The translations under genes and the position numbers were made by a program. 64,000 bases of DNA, taken from the sequence record MH560358; one strand, 5' to 3'. Under the pieces are notes generated by a model, which was given only the letters and a program-made list of their open reading frames with translations, was not told where the DNA came from and searched no databases. Numbering within the stretch: the stretch's first letter is position 1; the number at the start of each line of letters is the position of its first letter. Origin of the DNA: Escherichia virus KFS-EC. This document shows positions 2,923 through 40,552 of the stretch, piece after piece.

Positions 2923-3084
2923 CTATTTTAAATTATTTTCGACCTTCACCCATTCCGCGTATTCTTGCGCGGCTACTTTCGGATTTAGTCCGTCTTCGTA
3001 CATTGCATCAAGTAATTCTTTGTCGGTGGGCTTATACCCTAGATAAGCCTCCACCTGATTTTTCCAAATTTTATACCAGTTCAT
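2923..3084 (-). CDS. small protein (53 aa)
   Basis: ATG 5 nt after stop of upstream ORF, GGTGA SD. Confidence 0.4.
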   Translation of the reverse strand: MNWYKIWKNQVEAYLGYKPTDKELLDAMYEDGLNPKVAAQEYAEWVKVENNLK

Positions 3085-3088
3085 ATTA

Positions 3089-3361
3089 TCACCAATCAAG
3101 AGCGCGTGTCTCTGCGTCTTCCCATGCTTGATCCATAACAGCCTTGAAAACATATTCTAGAGTATCATCTTTAGAGAATCCGAAGACTTTAGACGGAATA
3201 TCTTCGATTGCTACTCCCGCAACTTCTGCATTACGCGCTTGGCAATAATGCAACTCTAAGTTATCGAGATAGCGACCGCCTAATTTCTCCATATCATCCC
3301 AGCATTTCCAGTAACCTACTTTATTTGCAATTGCTAACACTTTGCTGTTTTCGTTGCTCAT
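3089..3361 (-). CDS. small early protein (90 aa)
   Basis: ATG with AAGGAGAATCAAAG leader; promoter upstream. Confidence 0.5.
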   Translation of the reverse strand: MSNENSKVLAIANKVGYWKCWDDMEKLGGRYLDNLELHYCQARNAEVAGVAIEDIPSKVFGFSKDDTLEYVFKAVMDQAWEDAETRALDW

Positions 3362-3393
3362 CTTTGATTCTCCTTTTGTTTGGTATGTGTGTA

Positions 3394-3422
3394 TTATGCG
3401 AGGCTGGATTCGTGAAGTCAAC
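3394..3422 (-). promoter_or_regulatory. early promoter (TTGACT-17-CATAAT)
   Basis: -35 at 3417-3422; follows the terminator hairpin at 3441-3461. Confidence 0.55.
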
Positions 3423-3440
3423 AACTTTTTAAAATAAAAA

Positions 3441-3461
3441 AGCCGACCACAAGGATCGGCT
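3441..3461 (-). terminator. rho-independent terminator hairpin
   Basis: stem AGCCGA(T)CC with run of U on minus strand (A-run 3431-3440 on plus). Confidence 0.6.
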
Positions 3462-3471
3462 TAATAATCAG

Positions 3472-3867
3472 TTACTTACTAAATTTCTTTTTGGCTTCGT
3501 CTACCGCATGAGATGCCAGTACCGCAGCCGCATGTGCACTTTTATCTGTGTTGCAGAGAACGCCCAGATAAACATCACGCCAAAGTTTAATCATCTCGTA
3601 GATCATATCAATATCATTTTCTTGTTTGTTGGCGATGCTATTCGTCGTTATCTGGTAAGGTAACGGCTTGATCTGTACTGGTTCCGCCATCGGGCTAATC
3701 GGTTTCGGATCAGTCATAATAGGTGCTGTTGTGGGTGGTGTTTTCCATACATCATTATTCCACGGTTTAATCGTTGTGTCGTAAAGTTTATAAGGATTTT
3801 TGTCTGGGTCAACCATCCATGCATGATGAGTACCCAAACCATTTGAAGTGATGCGTCGTTCAGTCAT
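3472..3867 (-). CDS. hypothetical protein (131 aa), Pro-rich
   Basis: ATG with GGAGGG SD. Confidence 0.5.
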   Translation of the reverse strand: MTERRITSNGLGTHHAWMVDPDKNPYKLYDTTIKPWNNDVWKTPPTTAPIMTDPKPISPMAEPVQIKPLPYQITTNSIANKQENDIDMIYEMIKLWRDVYLGVLCNTDKSAHAAAVLASHAVDEAKKKFSK

Positions 3868-7662: not shown

Positions 7663-9771
7663 TTAAAATTTAACATTCTTAACCAGTTTCATAAAGTCTT
7701 GTGCGCGTTTGTCATTATGCAGAATACGATACCAGTTATCTACAATATCATACAGTAACGGGCTATTCTCTTTAAACTTCGCACAAACTGCTTTAATTCG
7801 TTCGTTTGCTACCGTGAATTTTTCATCACAAATCTTTTTAGTTTCTTCGTCCATAATCCAACGAGTACGAAGGAGTAACTTGGAAACCTCTTTATTATAA
7901 TGACGACCGTACAGTCTGTCAATAAATTCTGGAACACAGCGTTCTAGTTCATCGTCATGAAACAACATAGTGATCACACCCAGATATTCGCCATACCCCA
8001 GATGATTGGTCTTAACCTTCTTAGCCAGACCAGCCAGCTTACCGCAAACAAATTCTAGCGCACATTCCAATTGTTCGTCAACGAGATATTTTTGTGTCTC
8101 GTTTCGAGTAATAATATACTTTGTTACCCCGAAGTAGTCAAGCGCCGTGTGTAATGTATTTTCACTATGGATCGATTTACGACTACGGCTTTCGAATGCA
8201 TCACCTACGCGGAACATGTGCAAGCCTGATAACTCGCGAATCTCTGCCGCTTTCATGTGATGGCTGGTTTTATGCCAATTGTCACCAATCTTTTCCATAA
8301 TATACACGTTAGGCAGCTTGGGAGTAGCTTCACGTTGTGTACGCTCGGTCTTTTCCGGTTTAACTGCTTTAGCACGCAGATCATCGGCCTCAGACACTTT
8401 AATCACGGTCATTTCAGAATCATCATAATACTGTTTGATGTACTCGAAAGTCTCCATATGTTTTTCGTTGTTCTGACGGAACACCAGTACCTTTTTATTG
8501 ATTCCGTATTCCTGGACCATGCCGTTAAGAGTCAGTGCACGCAGTTTCGGTTTATCTGTATCATCAATAAGACACGTAATATCTTCTTTATGCATCCATA
8601 CAAAATGCGTAATGTTGTATTGACTGCTAACGAAAGCAGGGCGCAATTTACTGATTGTGTGACGAGTACGATACAGAGTATACACCTGACCTTCTACGTC
8701 ATTTGGCGAATCTTTACCAGCATTCACAAACTTATTATAGATTGCTACCGGATCATCCCACTGACCGATCTTACCCATCTTGCTAATAATATTGCGTTGC
8801 GTCGATGAATACTCGCTCATAAATTGAGCAAGTTTACGCTCTGTTTTAATGTTGGCGATCTTTTCTTTAACCTTTTCCAACATCATTTCATTGATTTCTG
8901 CAATGCGTTTTTCGATGTTCGCTTTAGTCTCAATTGACAAGTGAACTTCTTCACGCGATGGCATAAGGTCCAGATCACCCAACTCAAAATTAATGTAAAT
9001 GGTCTGGTGCTGGCGGTTTACAGCTTCTAACCATGTTCCGCGAACATATTCATACGGGATCGGATACTGGATCTTACCCATGATTGCATATACTACATAG
9101 GAATCGTTATCACGCCCATTACAAACATAATAATTATCAAAGCTAGGGAAATAATTAATTTCGATTGCATTGATATTAGGTTTGTGTTCCCCAAAATGAC
9201 GCAGTACAAATTGCGCTTCTCGATGCCATGTCTGAATGTCTTTTTCTTTCACCGGAATAGTGATTTTCAGACCATTGTCTTCATAGGTCGGTTCGTCGAA
9301 AATCTGCACCATTTTCGGCATCGAGTTTTGCACAAATGCCGTAAAGCCATAAGCGCGACCATTGTAATAGTTTACGATTGTAAAGGTGTCGGTATAGCTA
9401 TAAGCAGATTTCGCACCTAAACCAAAAGATCCGATATAATCATTAGTCTGGTCTTTTGTTGATTCAAAGTAAACCGTAAACAGTTGTTCTAATTCTTTCT
9501 TAGACGGAATACCAGTACCATAATCACGCACAGAAAAATACGGTTCGATTGCAGTCGGTAAATGAATATCAAACGGACGATCTAAGGTTCCGGCTTCTTT
9601 GTGAGTGTCGGTAGCATTGCACGAATACTCACGGACGCAAGCACGCTCACAATATTGATAAGTGTTCTTAGAAAGCACCATAAAAGCCTTGCTACTTGCT
9701 TTCAGTGAAAAATCAACCGCACCGCTCAAGTCACTGCCAAATACTTCTTCATTATCAATATGCATTTTCAT
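7663..9771 (-). CDS. rIIA: RIIA (rapid-lysis protector A, GHKL-type ATPase fold)
   Basis: matches T4 rIIA as recalled (DNG.GI, GSFGLGAKS, FELGDLD motifs); 702 aa. Confidence 0.9.
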   Translation of the reverse strand: MKMHIDNEEVFGSDLSGAVDFSLKASSKAFMVLSKNTYQYCERACVREYSCNATDTHKEAGTLDRPFDIHLPTAIEPYFSVRDYGTGIPSKKELEQLFTVYFESTKDQTNDYIGSFGLGAKSAYSYTDTFTIVNYYNGRAYGFTAFVQNSMPKMVQIFDEPTYEDNGLKITIPVKEKDIQTWHREAQFVLRHFGEHKPNINAIEINYFPSFDNYYVCNGRDNDSYVVYAIMGKIQYPIPYEYVRGTWLEAVNRQHQTIYINFELGDLDLMPSREEVHLSIETKANIEKRIAEINEMMLEKVKEKIANIKTERKLAQFMSEYSSTQRNIISKMGKIGQWDDPVAIYNKFVNAGKDSPNDVEGQVYTLYRTRHTISKLRPAFVSSQYNITHFVWMHKEDITCLIDDTDKPKLRALTLNGMVQEYGINKKVLVFRQNNEKHMETFEYIKQYYDDSEMTVIKVSEADDLRAKAVKPEKTERTQREATPKLPNVYIMEKIGDNWHKTSHHMKAAEIRELSGLHMFRVGDAFESRSRKSIHSENTLHTALDYFGVTKYIITRNETQKYLVDEQLECALEFVCGKLAGLAKKVKTNHLGYGEYLGVITMLFHDDELERCVPEFIDRLYGRHYNKEVSKLLLRTRWIMDEETKKICDEKFTVANERIKAVCAKFKENSPLLYDIVDNWYRILHNDKRAQDFMKLVKNVKF

Positions 9772-34373: not shown

Positions 34374-35399
34374 CTAACTTTTTGCGTTATTTACTTCGGC
34401 TAAAAGTTCATCAGAAATACGCTTGACCGCCGCAAGTTCTTCCGGTTCTAGGTTTTGTTCTTCCAGATATTCATAGACCATCTGAATAGTGCTTTTAACT
34501 TCAATAACACCTGTTTCCTGTGATGCGCTACTCTCCAGTTTATGGACCACTTTTAGCTTGTGTACAACGGCCTCTAACGCGCTTTCTAACTTAGTTAATC
34601 CATTATCAGCGACCGTTGCGATAAGACGCACACTAAGCCCTTTAAATCGTTCTACATCGATTTTATCGTCTGACGGGTAAGTGATACGCACATGATAAGT
34701 TTTGTCATTCTGGATAAACTCTTTTTTGTGTGTATCGGTATCGAATACCCAAAAACCACGCGGATCGTTTTCGTCACCCGCCGTTAGTGTGTATGGTGTA
34801 CCAATATACGTTACGTTACCGCCATCACTAATAGTATGAAAATGACCAGAAAACACTTCACGGTATTTCTTGAGGAAGTCCGCGCTATAACCTTCGGATT
34901 TTAGCCCTTTATAGAAATAGTAACCGGACAATTCCCAATGGCCTACACAATATTCGCTGAATGAGTTTTGAATAAACTCTAAAATCTCTGATTTATTGTC
35001 ATCACAAAACCACGGGAACAGATCAAATGATACACCATCAAAGGTAACTGTTTCAGGTTTATCAATGACCTTAATGCAATCATACTGGCTTAACACTTCA
35101 CGCGGTGCGTTAGGCTGGATCTTGTTTCGTTTAAACATATCATGATTCCCGACCGTGGTATAACAAGTAATACCAGCCTCTTCCAGTAACGGGATGACCT
35201 TAGTACGGTTAAATTTCATGGTTTCATGGGTAATTGCTTTTCGGCAATCAAACCAATCCCCTGTTTGAATCCATGTCTTAATATTATGCTCTTTGGAGTA
35301 TTCAACCGCTTTCTTGATGGTATCAAGAATATACTCATGCACCCACGGATCATCGCCACCGATACCAGTATGCAGATCACCTAAAAGCAAAATTTTCAT
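34374..35399 (-). CDS. 47: recombination nuclease subunit gp47 (Mre11-like)
   Basis: collinear with T4 gp47 as recalled (GD.H.G, TWIQ.GD.FD.RKAITH.TM.F, GNHD, GHWEL.G.YFYKG.KS.G, GHFHT). Confidence 0.92.
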   Translation of the reverse strand: MKILLLGDLHTGIGGDDPWVHEYILDTIKKAVEYSKEHNIKTWIQTGDWFDCRKAITHETMKFNRTKVIPLLEEAGITCYTTVGNHDMFKRNKIQPNAPREVLSQYDCIKVIDKPETVTFDGVSFDLFPWFCDDNKSEILEFIQNSFSEYCVGHWELSGYYFYKGLKSEGYSADFLKKYREVFSGHFHTISDGGNVTYIGTPYTLTAGDENDPRGFWVFDTDTHKKEFIQNDKTYHVRITYPSDDKIDVERFKGLSVRLIATVADNGLTKLESALEAVVHKLKVVHKLESSASQETGVIEVKSTIQMVYEYLEEQNLEPEELAAVKRISDELLAEVNNAKS

Positions 35400-35489
35400 A
35401 GTCTCTTCCTCTCTTCGTTTTCGATGCTCTCACTATATCACAGAAAAATAAAAAGGGAAACCCTTTTCAGAGTCTCCCTTATAAAGCCA

Positions 35490-35777
35490 TTACAGCATAC
35501 TTAATACCGTTTGCCGTGTACTAATCCACATAGCAGAAAGCAGTTCTGGCGTGTGTGGCTGTTTGTAGATATCACGTAATTTTCCGATAGCGTAGATATA
35601 CGCATCACGGTTATCATCGATGATAGCTTGTTCAGCCCACCGCTTAAGGCGTGCAATCTCTCGCGAGTTCTTACGCAAGATCTTTTCCGCTTTCTTAGCG
35701 GCTTTAGCCTCTAGTTCTGCTTGTACTTTGTCTACTTCATTCACCGCAATCTGGTCATGCTGTTCATCGTAAGTCAT
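35490..35777 (-). CDS. hypothetical protein (95 aa)
   Basis: ATG with AAGGA SD. Confidence 0.5.
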   Translation of the reverse strand: MTYDEQHDQIAVNEVDKVQAELEAKAAKKAEKILRKNSREIARLKRWAEQAIIDDNRDAYIYAIGKLRDIYKQPHTPELLSAMWISTRQTVLSML

Positions 35778-36013
35778 GTTATTTTTCCTTCTGGGATATA
35801 GTCGATGATTAAAGAAAATTCATCTTCTGATACATTATAGCTATGTGAGATTGTACCCGTCAAGACCTCAAGATCCGGTGATTTGATATTGCACGGATCG
35901 ATAATCACCGGAACGCCGCAATCTCTCAAAAATAATTTGGCGAAATACGGCACGAGGTCAGTTTCAAACTCTGCTTCTTCCAGCAAACGGGAAATGTTAA
36001 TTTTCAATCTCAT
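35774..36013 (-). CDS. hypothetical protein (79 aa)
   Basis: overlaps 3' end of gene 55; weak SD. Confidence 0.4.
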
Positions 36014-36530
36014 AAAATTGGTCCAGGCTAGGCAATTCCTCGGTCAATACATCTTCAACCTTTGGCGCTTTCGGTTTATTGACCGATTCCTCGTAGTTGT
36101 TGATTTTATCGTAAATGTCCTGTATGAATGCCTCATCAGCAATCTGGCACATATCAGCGTCGCGTTCGTCATATACATGATGCACAAAATATTTGTATTT
36201 TGCGGCTGTCGCTGTTCTCTCTTTTTTAATGCGCTGTACAAAAGCATTAAAGCACGCTTGCGTGATGTAAGCATGAGGATTTTTATACTTTGTCTCGTCA
36301 AAATTAATCAAACCCTTGACCGCCGCTTCGATTCCGTCGTCGATCATTTCTTCGCGCCATGTTTGACTATAACCAGAAAAGTTAAAACGACGTGATAGAT
36401 TTTTAGAGATTTGCATAATTGCTAGGCCGATTTGATCGCTCATTGGAACTTGCCGACCTTCTGCTGCAATTTGTTGTTTCCAACGGCAAATTTCTTCGTA
36501 AAGCTCTTTATTGTTTACATAATCAGACAC
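35997..36530 (-). CDS. 55: late-transcription sigma factor gp55
   Basis: matches T4 gp55 as recalled (YVNNKEL, GLAIM.I...[52 protein letters not shown]); GTG start with GAGGG SD. Confidence 0.9.
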
Positions 36531-36570: not shown

Positions 36571-38040
36571 CTATTCCCCATTGCCATTATACTTTCTTTG
36601 CTTAGTTATCCACACTCTAACCATCTCTACTGATTCACCGTCAGACGGATCAAGAGTTTTTCCCTTTTTCTTCATGCGGTACTTAAATCCGTTAAATCTT
36701 GCATTCTCTTGCTCGTTAAAATCGAACATCTTTTTAAATGATTTTCGCCCTTTACGCTCACCACATTCTAGCGGAATCATTCGGTCTGTTATTACATTGG
36801 CATTAGGTAGAAACGTTTTTAGATAATCTACCAACGCCCAATCAGGAACATATAGATTAACATTCTCCTTGCTCTCGTTGTCTCTCAGGTTACAACGCAA
36901 ACATAATTGAAATGCTGGTTCCAGATAATCAGACACATGACGCGCTTTCAAAAACTCATTTGTCGGGAGATCACAACTATTAGCAAGACCTTTTAAAATA
37001 TCAATCTCCCATCGTTGAGGGTTAAAGCTGAACATCACAGCAACATTTTTATGATGAATGTAAGAGTTAAGACCATAAGACCCGTAAGGTATCCGCTCGC
37101 CAATACCATTTGTGCACGCTTCACGGTCCCGATTCACGGTATAAATGAAGTCATCACCACATTCATTTTTAACCATATCAACAAGACGTTCAAAGGTATT
37201 GTTTGTTTCTGACTGGTGACGCGACCATCGTTCGGAGTCCGTCATAAGGATGATGTTAACTCTATCTGTATTTTTATACTCTTTGAAATATAGTCTGGAT
37301 TCTAGCGCACTCGGAACAAAATCGCAATTTGCATAGTATCGTAGATACTTCCCGCTATATGTATCAAAGAGATTTGCACATGCTATCGTAACCTTTTTAA
37401 AGTCTCCCCACGTACCGTGTTTGTTATCGTTCAAGAAAACAATTTTCGACCCATTCTTCCGGTGTCCTTCGTTATGTTTTACCATAACGTTGATTTTCTT
37501 CTCTAATAACGCCTCATAAAGCCCTCTAAGAGAAGAATCGATCATATCAGTACCATCCTTTGCACTTTCTATCTTTTCTTTGATAGCGGCCTTCTCAGAG
37601 TCTTTTAGAACTAAGTTCTGTAGGCATTCCGATTCGTCGGCGATTGGTTCGCAATGCTTCGTGATAAGTTCAAGATTAGACTTAAACGGATACTCATTAA
37701 ATTCAACCAGTTGAGGAACTTCATCAATGTAAAGAGCATATTCACCAAACATTTTTGAACGTTCCATATTAGATAACGCTGTATGTGTAATGAATATCAC
37801 ATCAGCACCGTCTTTAACTGATTGCATTATCGACGCTTGCACTGTCTTAAGGCTTCTTAGTCTGGTGCTATCAATCAAGACAGCACGACCGCCCATTCTT
37901 TTAAACTTATTGTAAGATTGTTCACTTAAAACACGAGATGGCGAAGCAATAACCGCTTTTTCTTTTGTCTCTAGGACGTGGGAAAGTATAGCATCAGTTT
38001 TCCCCGCCGCTGGCAATGCGATTAATGTTTCAATCTTCAT
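36571..38040 (-). CDS. uncharacterised P-loop NTPase (489 aa), helicase-like Walker A/B
   Basis: Walker A ALPAAGKTD near N-terminus and Walker B LYIDEV about 95 aa later; no match to a T4 protein I can recall; occupies the alpha-gt locus between 55 and nrdH. Confidence 0.6.
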   Translation of the reverse strand: MKIETLIALPAAGKTDAILSHVLETKEKAVIASPSRVLSEQSYNKFKRMGGRAVLIDSTRLRSLKTVQASIMQSVKDGADVIFITHTALSNMERSKMFGEYALYIDEVPQLVEFNEYPFKSNLELITKHCEPIADESECLQNLVLKDSEKAAIKEKIESAKDGTDMIDSSLRGLYEALLEKKINVMVKHNEGHRKNGSKIVFLNDNKHGTWGDFKKVTIACANLFDTYSGKYLRYYANCDFVPSALESRLYFKEYKNTDRVNIILMTDSERWSRHQSETNNTFERLVDMVKNECGDDFIYTVNRDREACTNGIGERIPYGSYGLNSYIHHKNVAVMFSFNPQRWEIDILKGLANSCDLPTNEFLKARHVSDYLEPAFQLCLRCNLRDNESKENVNLYVPDWALVDYLKTFLPNANVITDRMIPLECGERKGRKSFKKMFDFNEQENARFNGFKYRMKKKGKTLDPSDGESVEMVRVWITKQRKYNGNGE

Positions 38041-38327
38041 TAGAAACCCTTACGTCGTGCTTTCTGGCATTTCTTGATCATTTTATCAGAAATTTCGCGC
38101 TTAGGTGCAATCTCTTTCACACCGAAAGCACTAATGCCAAATTCAGAGAGAATATATTCAACCAACAATTCACGCACACGCGATTTACCGATATTCACGC
38201 CGTTATTTTTCAGATATGTCTGGCCTTCGACTTGCATCAGATCTAAATCTGCGTCGGTAATATTGATTTCTTCCATGCGCCCAAATCGAGAATAAACCAT
38301 GTGTGCGATTGCATTGTGTACTAACAT
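38040..38327 (-). CDS. hypothetical protein (95 aa) translationally coupled to the P-loop NTPase
   Basis: stop overlaps ATG of 36571-38040 (TAATG); internal ATG with GAGGAA SD; track start TTG. Confidence 0.5.
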   Translation of the reverse strand: MLVHNAIAHMVYSRFGRMEEINITDADLDLMQVEGQTYLKNNGVNIGKSRVRELLVEYILSEFGISAFGVKEIAPKREISDKMIKKCQKARRKGF

Positions 38328-38348
38328 AATATATTCCTCACTCAAGAA

Positions 38349-38507
38349 TTACTTAATGATACTTACTTTACCAGATCCATGACAATGAGCGCAACACCCA
38401 TCACCACGCAATCCTGTTCCGTTACAGTGTTTACACTTCTTCAACGGTAAAGTCATTATAGCAAATAAAGCAATAATGAACACCGAAACTAAATTCTCAA
38501 TAATCAT
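38349..38507 (-). CDS. 52-aa membrane-anchored zinc-ribbon mini-protein
   Basis: hand-translated MIIENLVSVFIIALFAIMTLPLKKCKHCNGTGLRGDGCCAHCHGSGKVSIIK; GAGGG SD; overlaps nrdH stop by 11 nt. Confidence 0.45.
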   Translation of the reverse strand: MIIENLVSVFIIALFAIMTLPLKKCKHCNGTGLRGDGCCAHCHGSGKVSIIK

Positions 38508-38766
38508 AAATCGCCCTCAGTTCTTTATAGCCTCCAATGTGCTCGTTGTCAATGAATATCTGGGGGTATACAAACCGGAGGCTCTTTGAGTTTAGCCTCC
38601 CCGCCAGTTCTTCAATCATATCACGGTCGGGAATAATGTCAACCCCGACCTGCTTGAATACTGGTTTAAGTGTATACGGAATACCCAGATCATCCAGTAG
38701 CTTCATTGCACTAATACAACCATAACAATGATAAGCCTCTTTCGGTATACCGTATATCTCGATCAT
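38497..38766 (-). CDS. nrdH: glutaredoxin-like protein (NrdH position)
   Basis: redox motif CYGC in thioredoxin-fold context (IEIYG...CYGC...P.IFID...IGGY..L). Confidence 0.7.
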   Translation of the reverse strand: MIEIYGIPKEAYHCYGCISAMKLLDDLGIPYTLKPVFKQVGVDIIPDRDMIEELAGRLNSKSLRFVYPQIFIDNEHIGGYKELRAIYDY

Positions 38767-39239
38767 TTCTCAGCCTTTAATCTTTCTAGTTCTTCTTCCA
38801 GTTCCTTGATCCGTTGGTCACGTTCAAAGTCACGCTGCAACTTAATGGCGAATACTCGTTTAAACTGATTGTAATCATCGATTTTAAACACTTCTTCTTC
38901 GCCATAGCGACGCACAGAAACTTCGTAGTTATTGAAGAATTGTTGCATCATTGCTTCGGATGATAGCTCTGCTGATACCACTTTAAAATATTGATCTTCT
39001 GTAGGCGAAAACCAATTACAAGCATAAAGATAAACCTTTTCATTGTCTGGACACTGGTAAGCCTTACCATCGATTTCAATCACAGAAACATATTCAGGTA
39101 TACTAGATGAATCAATAGCTAAGACTTTAAACGCACGGTCCCCGATAAACTCGGAGATCACACGATTCGCATCACTGGTTGCAAATGCTTTACGCGCTTG
39201 TTCGTTTTTCCACTGATAGGTCATACCAACAACAAACAT
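38763..39239 (-). CDS. repeat-domain family protein (1 copy of W..GKTY.WKD-type domain + coiled coil)
   Basis: shares domain with 39241-40065, 40078-40542 and 44948-46126; internal ATG with GAGG SD. Confidence 0.55.
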   Translation of the reverse strand: MFVVGMTYQWKNEQARKAFATSDANRVISEFIGDRAFKVLAIDSSSIPEYVSVIEIDGKAYQCPDNEKVYLYACNWFSPTEDQYFKVVSAELSSEAMMQQFFNNYEVSVRRYGEEEVFKIDDYNQFKRVFAIKLQRDFERDQRIKELEEELERLKAEK

Positions 39240-39240
39240 A

Positions 39241-40065
39241 TTACCAACCTCGCTCTTTACCAATCAAAAATTCAACTTCACGACGTTTAATGTCTTCTTG
39301 AAGGTCTTTAATCTTCTGGCGATCTTGCATTATTTCGTCCATCTTGTCAAGTGCTGCGATGAAATCATCGAAACGTTCAAAGGTTTTACCTTCATTTGCT
39401 TCGCCAAATTTAACCATTGTCAGGCCGTAACGACTACTAAACAGACGTTTCAACTGTCCAACGATTTTAGAATCAGTGGTTATAACTTCCAATTCTTCTA
39501 CTTCACGAAAGAATTTTCTATCAGAATCAATAAACCAGCTAGTTCCTTTATGGTCTCTATCTTCGGTTGCGCTCATTAGAGTATGGTCTTTACCATCAAT
39601 TTCAATTACATCAATTTGCCCACATGGACTAACATTTTTAACAGTAAAAGGTCTATAATTTATTGCTCGTGCAATAACATAATTAAGGTTAGATACGTTT
39701 TCAGCATAATGGCAGAAGTCGGTCATAGCATTCGCATCTTTCCAAGTATAAGTTTTACCAACTTCCCATTTCTGGGGAACTTCTTCAACTTCACGAAAGA
39801 ATTTTCTATCGAATGGACTAAAGAAATATGTTGCAGTCCAAATGTCTTTTCCTGTAGCAGTTTTCGCCGTATGATAAACACCGTCTAGCTCTATTGCATT
39901 AATCCAACCGTTGCCATCAATCTCGATGATGGTAAATGGCTTGTCACCAATAGCTGCACTAATATCGCTGTTAAGTGGAGAAAGAACACCTTCTCCGTTA
40001 GTAATAAACTCAGTTTTAGCGTTTTCGTCTTTCCAGGTGTAAGTTTTACCAATTTCCCATTTCAT
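39241..40065 (-). CDS. repeat-domain family protein (2 tandem copies of W.GKTYTWKD domain)
   Basis: internal duplication MKWEIGKTYTWKDENA / QKWEVGKTYTWKDANA, each followed by VIEIDG and DRKFFREVEE. Confidence 0.6.
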   Translation of the reverse strand: MKWEIGKTYTWKDENAKTEFITNGEGVLSPLNSDISAAIGDKPFTIIEIDGNGWINAIELDGVYHTAKTATGKDIWTATYFFSPFDRKFFREVEEVPQKWEVGKTYTWKDANAMTDFCHYAENVSNLNYVIARAINYRPFTVKNVSPCGQIDVIEIDGKDHTLMSATEDRDHKGTSWFIDSDRKFFREVEELEVITTDSKIVGQLKRLFSSRYGLTMVKFGEANEGKTFERFDDFIAALDKMDEIMQDRQKIKDLQEDIKRREVEFLIGKERGW

Positions 40066-40077
40066 AATATATTCCCC

Positions 40078-40542
40078 TTAACCGATTTTATCAAGTTCGT
40101 TTAATGCTTTCTCTGCTTCCTGTATAGCTTGCACCCTTTCCGGCATTTTGTCAAGAAAATCTTTCAACTCTTCAAAACTGGAGATATGACGCAAGGCGTT
40201 AGCACCGATAGCCGCATGTGATTTGCATTCAAAGCGGATTTTATAATTATCCATCGCCAACTTGAGAAGATCAATTAATTTAGATTCTTCTGGAATAATA
40301 ATTTCTTCAAATCTGCTACGGTCATGATCCAGAAACCAACAAGATAGACCTACATCGGTTGAACTCATATAAGTTCCATCATGAAGATAAACAGACCGCA
40401 CGTATCCTTTTTTCGCATCAACCGACGCAACTTTAAACGGTAATCTCAGATATTTCAAATAATCAACATCATACCATTTAAAAAATTGGTTTGCATCTTT
40501 TACATCTTTCCACGCATAGGTCTTACCAGCTTCCCATTCCAT
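40078..40542 (-). CDS. repeat-domain family protein (1 copy)
   Basis: MEWEAGKTYAWKD motif; coiled-coil C-terminus; track start GTG. Confidence 0.55.
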   Translation of the reverse strand: MEWEAGKTYAWKDVKDANQFFKWYDVDYLKYLRLPFKVASVDAKKGYVRSVYLHDGTYMSSTDVGLSCWFLDHDRSRFEEIIIPEESKLIDLLKLAMDNYKIRFECKSHAAIGANALRHISSFEELKDFLDKMPERVQAIQEAEKALNELDKIG

Positions 40543-40552
40543 AATAATCACC

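Follow-up and report, generated by a model that had tools for sequence, protein, structure and literature searches.

The stretch analyzed here, 64,000 nucleotides of Escherichia virus KFS-EC (sequence record MH560358; hereafter the window), contains on its minus strand (36571–38040) an open reading frame (ORF) for a 489-residue protein that is almost certainly a helicase-type ATPase of superfamily 2 (SF2). As modeled, this protein shares its architecture with the helicases XPD and DinG; it is not a demonstrable member of the XPD/DinG group and is best placed in an SF2 family of its own. By analogy with accessory helicases of phage T4, we lean toward the view that it is an early-expressed accessory DNA helicase or translocase with a role in phage DNA metabolism.

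The region that holds this gene and two smaller ones (36571–38507) is 90–99.5% identical at the nucleotide level to 57 genomes of Krischvirus (RB49-like) phages. The 489-residue protein is 100% identical to its RB49 counterpart, RB49ORF044c, which is labeled "hypothetical protein", and the two genes differ by 10 synonymous and 0 nonsynonymous codons. In the GenBank record of phage W115 the gene is named "putative helicase", and a weak DEAD/DEAH Pfam match of RB49ORF044c (E = 0.069) was already tabulated by Nolan et al. in 2006 (PMC1524935). Thus, the protein is not unrecognized, as an earlier sequence-only reading of the window had called it. What is new is the description of this known gene family as a compact helicase of XPD/DinG-like architecture without an iron–sulfur (Fe-S) domain. 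The helicase is among the larger conserved uncharacterized proteins of T4-related phages, and its position is shared by many Straboviridae genera.

Fold and Motifs of the 489-Residue Protein

In the AlphaFold2 model (predicted local distance difference test (pLDDT) 88.1, predicted template modeling (pTM) score 0.77), the chain adopts the two-RecA-domain core of an SF2 helicase. A Foldseek search of the PDB with this model placed XPD, CasDinG, and DinG on top, with E-values down to 2.6e-10, and both RecA-like domains were matched by hundreds of SF2 helicase structures. The structural matches scored 18.2 over 348 aligned residues for Finegoldia DinG, 17.9 over 330 for XPD, 17.5 over 341 for CasDinG, and 17.3 over 332 for Rad3, as compared to 14.5 over 256 for the best other SF2 structure (Ino80). 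The additional residues aligned in the XPD/DinG-type matches are in line with an insertion of about 105 residues (residues 110–215, 37396–37713) that separates motif II from motif III and coincides with the site of the Arch domain in XPD and DinG. A fold search of BFVD with the same model returned nothing but uncharacterized phage relatives.

The motifs of an SF2 ATPase can be followed through an alignment of 31 homologues and a second alignment of 40 distant relatives (all coordinates on the minus strand). In motif I or Walker A (LPAAGKT, residues 9–15, 37996–38016), G13, K14, and T15 are invariant among the 31 homologues, and K14 is also kept by the 40 distant relatives. The motif Ia region (IASPSRVLSEQS, residues 31–42, 37915–37950), with S33, L38, and S42 invariant in the 31-homologue alignment, was aligned by hhalign to the Ia motifs of RhlE and UvrB. 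Motif II or Walker B (LYIDEVP, residues 103–109, 37714–37734) carries D106 and E107, which are invariant in both alignments. A candidate motif III (TIACAN, residues 218–223, 37372–37389) is assigned by position; T218 and N223 are nearly invariant among the 31 homologues, and in the distant set the same is true of A222. The second RecA-like domain begins with a putative motif IV (FIYTVNRDR, residues 298–306, 37123–37149; Y300, N303, and R306 invariant among the 31 homologues) and continues with a motif V-like segment (YGSYGLNSY, residues 319–327, 37060–37086), in which G323 and N325 are invariant in 40 of 40 distant relatives. Motif VI (PAFQLCLRCNLRD, residues 375–387, 36880–36918) contains the arginine-finger candidates, with Q378, R382, and R386 invariant in both alignments. 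The chain ends in a basic helical tail (residues 434–489, 36574–36741) with helices at residues 443–458 and 468–486 in the model and an invariant W477; this tail did not match any family.

These results bear out part of what the sequence-only reading had said about the protein. Walker A and Walker B are both present (92 residues from K14 to D106), and the proposed helicase- or translocase-like NTPase is recovered by the structure model and the fold searches as an SF2 protein closest to XPD/DinG. The large C-terminal domain described in that reading also exists, but it is not unassignable, since it consists of the second RecA-like domain and the short basic helical tail.

Residues K14, D106, E107, G323, N325, Q378, R382, and R386 are invariant across the 40 relatives, which share 17–42% identity. 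Since this covers motifs I, II, V, and VI in such distant proteins, the conservation provides strong sequence-level evidence for an active ATPase motor, and we expect the protein to be a catalytically competent SF2 motor. Full-length homologues with 31–74% identity also keep the motifs. When 1.84 billion cluster representatives were scanned in full with HMMER, 1312 relatives passed E ≤ 1e-3 and 751 of them passed E ≤ 1e-10. By length these sequences form two classes, one of about 480–550 residues and one of about 750–890 residues with C-terminal extensions for which no Pfam match was found. Judged from these comparisons, the ORF is a genuine gene and not a chance reading frame.

Assignment to a named family was less productive. 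Pfam DEAD was the sole Pfam family above threshold (27.4 bits vs a cutoff of 26), with a match that covers the N-terminal 130 residues only. PHROG 2467 matched the protein with E = 8.8e-175, and its function label is "unknown". Neither the sequence alone nor a profile had a meaningful match among the sequences of PDB chains, a scan of NCBIfam gave nothing, and a word-indexed protein search with the profile revealed no further named relatives.

The DEAD match could indicate that the protein is an RNA helicase or chaperone for transcripts of the phage or its host, with a part in, for instance, mRNA turnover or the control of translation early in infection. In the same direction, the best hhalign match of the N-terminal domain is the DEAD-box protein RhlE (85%), and paralogous proteins encoded upstream distantly match goF-type "mRNA metabolism modulator" PHROGs. 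We nevertheless consider an RNA helicase very unlikely, since the DEAD-box signatures are missing: the protein reads DEVP for DEAD, CAN for SAT, and QLCLRCNLR for HRxGRxGR, and it has neither a Q-motif nor a Helicase_C match.

Several observations also weigh against our preferred interpretation as a DNA helicase of XPD/DinG-like architecture. The 4Fe-4S domain of XPD and DinG was not found in the 489-residue protein: residues 43–102 are free of cysteine, and from the cysteines present (130, 139, 221, 239, 294, 309, 356, 380, 383, and 426) only C130 and C380 are invariant. Because the Fe-S domain forms part of the single-stranded DNA pore of XPD, the polarity and substrate of XPD are not confidently transferable to the phage protein. 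None of the 31 family members matched Pfam DEAD_2 or Helicase_C_2 at E ≤ 1. An hhalign comparison of the family profile with E. coli DinG gave 18% probability over 45 columns in the Walker A region only, and for the N-terminal domain both RhlE and UvrB (78%) ranked above DinG. The missing Fe-S domain together with the missing profile kinship weakens the XPD/DinG analogy for loading and unwinding. For the same reasons we place the protein in its own SF2 family rather than in XPD/DinG proper. The insertion at residues 110–215, for its part, is only a putative equivalent of the Arch domain. Finally, database records describe the family as "hypothetical" or "putative helicase" throughout, and in the literature on RB49ORF044c or its homologues we found no functional study, only the Pfam entry from 2006.

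Neighboring Genes and Distribution

The helicase gene lies between gene 55, which encodes the late sigma factor and is its conserved downstream neighbor (35997–36530; phrog_234, E = 4.2e-63; RB49 annotation), and the upstream landmark nrdH, which encodes a glutaredoxin (38497–38766; Pfam Glutaredoxin; RB49 annotation). This location agrees with the sequence-only reading, as does the statement that T4 has no gene of helicase type at this position, where it carries 55.1. Two other parts of that description need correction. First, the locus is not the alpha-gt locus. T4 carries alpha-gt across gene 55 from here, in the 55-to-47 interval; its nrdH-to-55 interval contains only 55.6 to 55.1, and the 489-residue ORF takes the place of 55.1. 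Second, a 52-residue ORF (38349–38507) does not follow the ATPase gene. Since all genes of this block are encoded on the minus strand, the order of transcription is nrdH, the 52-residue ORF, a 95-residue ORF (38040–38327), the 489-residue ORF, and gene 55, so that the peptide precedes the ATPase.

The 95-residue ORF starts at ATG 38327 and would code for 101 residues if started from TTG 38345. Its product matches Pfam DUF7570 (98.3 bits vs a cutoff of 27) and phrog_1475, and it shares 42% identity with T4 gp55.2 (E = 3e-20). Its place, between nrdH and gene 55, is that of T4 55.2, and in RB49 it is annotated as 55.2. By sequence, it is an orthologue of T4 gp55.2. The T4 protein inhibits relaxation by E. 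coli topoisomerase I; it is nonessential and increases fitness (PMC4396842). Topoisomerase I inhibition is a property of T4 gp55.2, to which the RB49-type protein may be likened by homology. In T4, 55.2 is followed by 55.1, whereas in Krischvirus it is followed by the helicase gene.

The close spacing of the two genes raises the question as to whether their products act as a pair. In such a scheme, gp55.2 would inhibit topoisomerase I and thereby promote negative supercoiling and R-loops, and the helicase would process R- or D-loops, for example to start or limit R-loop-primed replication. DinG-type helicases are known to unwind both R-loops and D-loops. The overlap reported in the sequence-only reading is indeed seen in the window, where the stop codon of the 95-residue ORF overlaps the ATG of the 489-residue ORF (TAATG, 38040–38044). 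Annotated coding sequences overlap likewise in RB43, Rgz1, S13, and CC2, and 8 nt separate the two genes in vB_VmeM-32. A pairing would also draw on the reported ability of T4 gp55.2 to inhibit relaxation by topoisomerase I (PMC4396842).

The distribution of the two genes argues against this pairing. A 55.2 profile applied to nine sampled lineages located 55.2 immediately before the helicase gene in six of them, but in phage 25, Cronus, and Muldoon it was found 0.8–1.2 kb upstream with 1–5 ORFs in between. Homologues of gp55.2 occur in about 1090 phage records as compared to 242 for the helicase, and T4 uses gp55.2 alone. The order 55.2 ... 55 is kept with or without the helicase, so that synteny alone explains the adjacency of 55.2 and the helicase gene. 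Outside Straboviridae, no 55.2 lies within 4–8 kb of the helicase relatives in Agrobacterium phage Atu_ph07, in Pseudoalteromonas phage PH357, and on a Sinorhizobium megaplasmid, and in the window the helicase gene has a Shine–Dalgarno-like sequence of its own (AAGGG, 7 nt 5' of the ATG). On balance, we regard a functional pair as quite unlikely. A more specific version, in which gp55.2 and the helicase form a two-part control of topology and R-loops and the helicase remodels R-loops to prime or terminate origin-type replication, is highly improbable. If true, it would represent a replication-initiation accessory pathway that T4 lost or replaced.

The 52-residue ORF (RB49ORF046c) shares 11 nt with the end of nrdH. 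As proposed from the sequence earlier, it combines a hydrophobic N-terminal segment with paired cysteine motifs, which are two exact CxxCxGxG motifs (CKHCNGTG and CAHCHGSG). The peptide matches phrog_3931 (E = 4.4e-10), and a weak motif match of RB49ORF046c was recorded before (PMC1524935). Pfam DnaJ_CXXCXGXG scored 14.6 vs a cutoff of 32.7, as expected for a single motif pair; matches to DnaJ, GRXCR, and anti-TRAP models were weak and all below curated thresholds. Two CxxCxGxG motifs suffice for one zinc site, and we predict that the peptide is a membrane-anchored, single DnaJ-type zinc finger. The N-terminal hydrophobic anchor sets it apart from DnaJ-type peptides such as the DnaJ central domain and anti-TRAP. 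Its relatives are uncharacterized peptides from Krischvirus and FelixO1-like phages only; within Straboviridae the peptide is confined to Krischvirus, and the ORF was not found in the annotated loci of RB43, Rgz1, phage 25, CC2, S13, and VmeM-32.

Given this patchy co-occurrence and adjacency, the 52-residue peptide, 55.2, and the ATPase do not constitute a conserved module. The idea of an ATPase with two coupled small partners does not hold, since one partner is the gp55.2 orthologue, which is separated from the helicase in three of nine lineages, and the other is lineage-restricted. Comparison of the 55–nrdH interval across T4-like genomes supports the absence of the helicase from T4 but not the conservation of a three-gene unit. 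Hence, these genes do not represent a new kind of system: they code for an uncharacterized helicase, a homologue of a topoisomerase I inhibitor, and a lineage-specific peptide.

The helicase gene itself has gene 55 as its immediate downstream neighbor in Krischvirus, Gualtarvirus, Tulanevirus, Ceceduovirus, vB_VmeM-32, S13, Roskildevirus, and Muldoonvirus. Phages with this arrangement include Morganella phage Rgz1, Aeromonas phages 25 and CC2, Vibrio phage VmeM-32, Cronobacter phage S13, Erwinia phage Cronus, and Serratia phage Muldoon. The rearranged RB43 is an exception, with the helicase after nrdH and 55.2 and followed by gene 34. The block is flanked by nrd genes and by genes 55, 47, and 46, which is a DNA-metabolism context. 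Most likely, the helicase is an ancestral, vertically inherited Straboviridae gene that was lost in T4-type phages, where 55.1 stands in its place. We also considered gp55.1 of T4 as a remnant of the helicase and rejected this idea, because hhalign gave a probability of 0.4% and the two proteins are thus unrelated. RB49 retains dda and gene 41, and it also retains uvsW (PMC1524935). RB49ORF044c is therefore an additional helicase, neither a replacement nor an orthologue of these enzymes.

Two observations on individual relatives may be added. In Aeromonas phage 25 (Tulanevirus-type), a 191-residue DprA-like protein (positions 2929–3504 of locus L005; phrog_768, E = 6e-66), a homologue of this recombination mediator, is encoded between 55.2 and the helicase, and the end of its gene overlaps the helicase start. 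It is a possible functional partner of the helicase. In Sinorhizobium meliloti BL225C, the megaplasmid pSINMEB02 contains a 485-residue relative of the helicase in an unannotated stretch (positions 7989–9446 of locus L016), flanked by resolvase, integrase, and terminase-like ORFs. These neighbors point to an element of prophage or satellite type as a carrier of the same helicase family.

The surroundings of the block in the window differ from RB49 in one respect. In RB49, a-gt.4 and gene 47 are separated by a homing-endonuclease-like gene of the HNH/AP2 type (RB49ORF040c, 555 nt). In its place the window contains only a 90-nt gap (35399–35490), as do W115, TB34, and SAP, and the window therefore comes from an RB49 relative without the mobile endonuclease. 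Upstream of the block, between nrdG and nrdH (38763–40551, minus strand), three consecutive ORFs of 166, 274, and 157 residues are all strong phrog_5347 matches with distant similarity to the goF-type PHROGs mentioned above. The 274-residue ORF contains an internal duplication. By sequence similarity, this trio is a local paralogue expansion.

Expression and Proposed Role

The helicase gene is located on the early-gene strand. Inside nrdH, upstream of the three genes, we identified a candidate early-type (sigma-70-type) promoter (38615–38642, minus strand; TTGACA, 16 nt, TATGAT) with an upstream TG and 11 of 12 consensus positions. As a consensus match, this element could drive early transcription of the 52-residue ORF, 55.2, and the helicase gene. 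The 64-kb window contains a single copy of the T4 late-promoter consensus TATAAATA (55782, minus strand), as compared to 5.8 copies expected from shuffles. This scarcity fits with the window being almost wholly an early/middle region, and it leaves no late promoter upstream of the helicase gene. Novel ORFs in such blocks have been argued to be co-expressed with early genes (PMC1524935). Early expression of the helicase is thus suggested by consensus matches, a basis that has to be counted among the points against our interpretation.

The explanation that we favor can be outlined as follows. The helicase gene is probably transcribed as one of the early genes in the block from nrdH to gene 55. 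The substrate bound by the enzyme is most likely single-stranded DNA, or DNA that is branched or contains an R-loop. ATP would be hydrolyzed in the cleft that separates the RecA domains, and this would power translocation and the unwinding of forks, D-loops, or R-loops. In the infected cell, the enzyme may serve in replication, recombination, or repair as an accessory to gp41, Dda, and UvsW. In this scheme gp55.2 and the 52-residue zinc-finger peptide would be neighbors by synteny and not obligatory subunits.

The sequence-only reading had offered DNA modification, anti-defense, and host takeover as possible roles, and none of our results points specifically to any of them. A motor with this fold could also be directed against the host. 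As an anti-defense or host-takeover translocase, it might strip host proteins or defense complexes from phage DNA, with CRISPR or other R-loop-forming effectors and nucleoid proteins as targets, or it might remodel host DNA. XPD-like helicases do occur in defense systems, and CasDinG, Hna, and DdmD are among the structural matches of the 489-residue protein. This role would be consistent with the accessory status of the gene, which some related phages carry and others lack, with its location among many small variable ORFs, and with the relative in the mobile-element-like Sinorhizobium region with its integrase, resolvase, and terminase-like neighbors. However, the PADLOC defense models gave one weak and implausible match and none that is credible, and no known anti-defense family matches the protein. 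The deep syntenic conservation across Straboviridae genera with different hosts is housekeeping-like rather than indicative of fast turnover, and close relatives differ almost solely by synonymous changes. We therefore judge an anti-defense role to be unlikely.

RB49 DNA is generally regarded as unmodified, which would make it practical to edit this phage by CRISPR. The Krischvirus SAP was recently reported to contain modified cytosines, in a genus without known pathway genes, and TB34, which is 99.96% identical to SAP, contains none (2026 paper, PMC13390438). This finding raises the alternative that the helicase belongs to a DNA-modification pathway that replaces the hydroxymethylase and glucosyltransferase genes missing from Krischvirus. 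The unmodified near-twin TB34 indeed has a frameshift in the helicase at codon 460, caused by a one-base deletion in an A6 run (codons 456–459), and the gene is intact in SAP. The Snippy table for TB34 vs SAP lists about 50 single-base homopolymer indels, with frameshifts also in DNA polymerase, sliding clamp, topoisomerase, ribonucleotide reductase, and recombination protein genes (Table S5, PMC13390438). Since essential genes are included, the helicase frameshift is almost certainly an assembly error and uninformative on the helicase, and we rejected it as the cause of the difference in modification. A role in modification is further contradicted by the fold, which does not offer transferase or synthase chemistry, and by the presence of the helicase in unmodified TB34 and RB49-type phages. 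In addition, Erwinia phage Cronus contains both the helicase and an alpha-glucosyltransferase, so the helicase does not stand in for glucosylation. We give next to no credence to this alternative.

The same comparison yielded an observation of its own. Most of the single-base substitutions between SAP and TB34 are of the C>T type and affect proline codons, 9 of them synonymously and 5 as Pro>Leu (Table S5, PMC13390438); the remaining two are Gly283Arg and a complex Ser4Leu. This pattern looks like a base-calling artifact at a modified or methylated CC motif rather than divergence, and it may bear on the puzzle of the modified DNA of SAP.

Comparison with Known Helicases

In architecture, the 489-residue protein is closest to XPD/Rad3 and DinG, which are SF2 helicases that unwind DNA in the 5'–3' direction. 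This likeness yields a biochemical hypothesis, namely that the phage protein would be a DNA-stimulated ATPase with 5'–3' unwinding activity on forks or R-loops. With 489 residues, the phage protein is much smaller; all but one of the XPD/DinG chains that it matched comprise 551–738 residues. It also differs from them by the spacing of motif VI (QxxxRxxxR) and by the extra basic C-terminal tail.

CasDinG, the DinG homologue associated with type IV CRISPR systems, likewise lacks the Fe-S domain. It is larger (about 600 residues), shares 9–11% identity with the phage protein in structural alignments, and is a partner of a CRISPR effector complex, whereas the phage gene has no cas neighbors and lies in an early-gene block.

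With regard to function, the closest parallels come from T4, where Dda (SF1B) and UvsW (SF2) are non-replicative early/middle helicases in replication, recombination, and R-loop metabolism. Both belong to other families, and UvsW (2oca) is a weak Foldseek match to the model of the 489-residue protein (TM 0.21). By analogy, the niche of T4 Dda and UvsW appears to be the most plausible one for this helicase.

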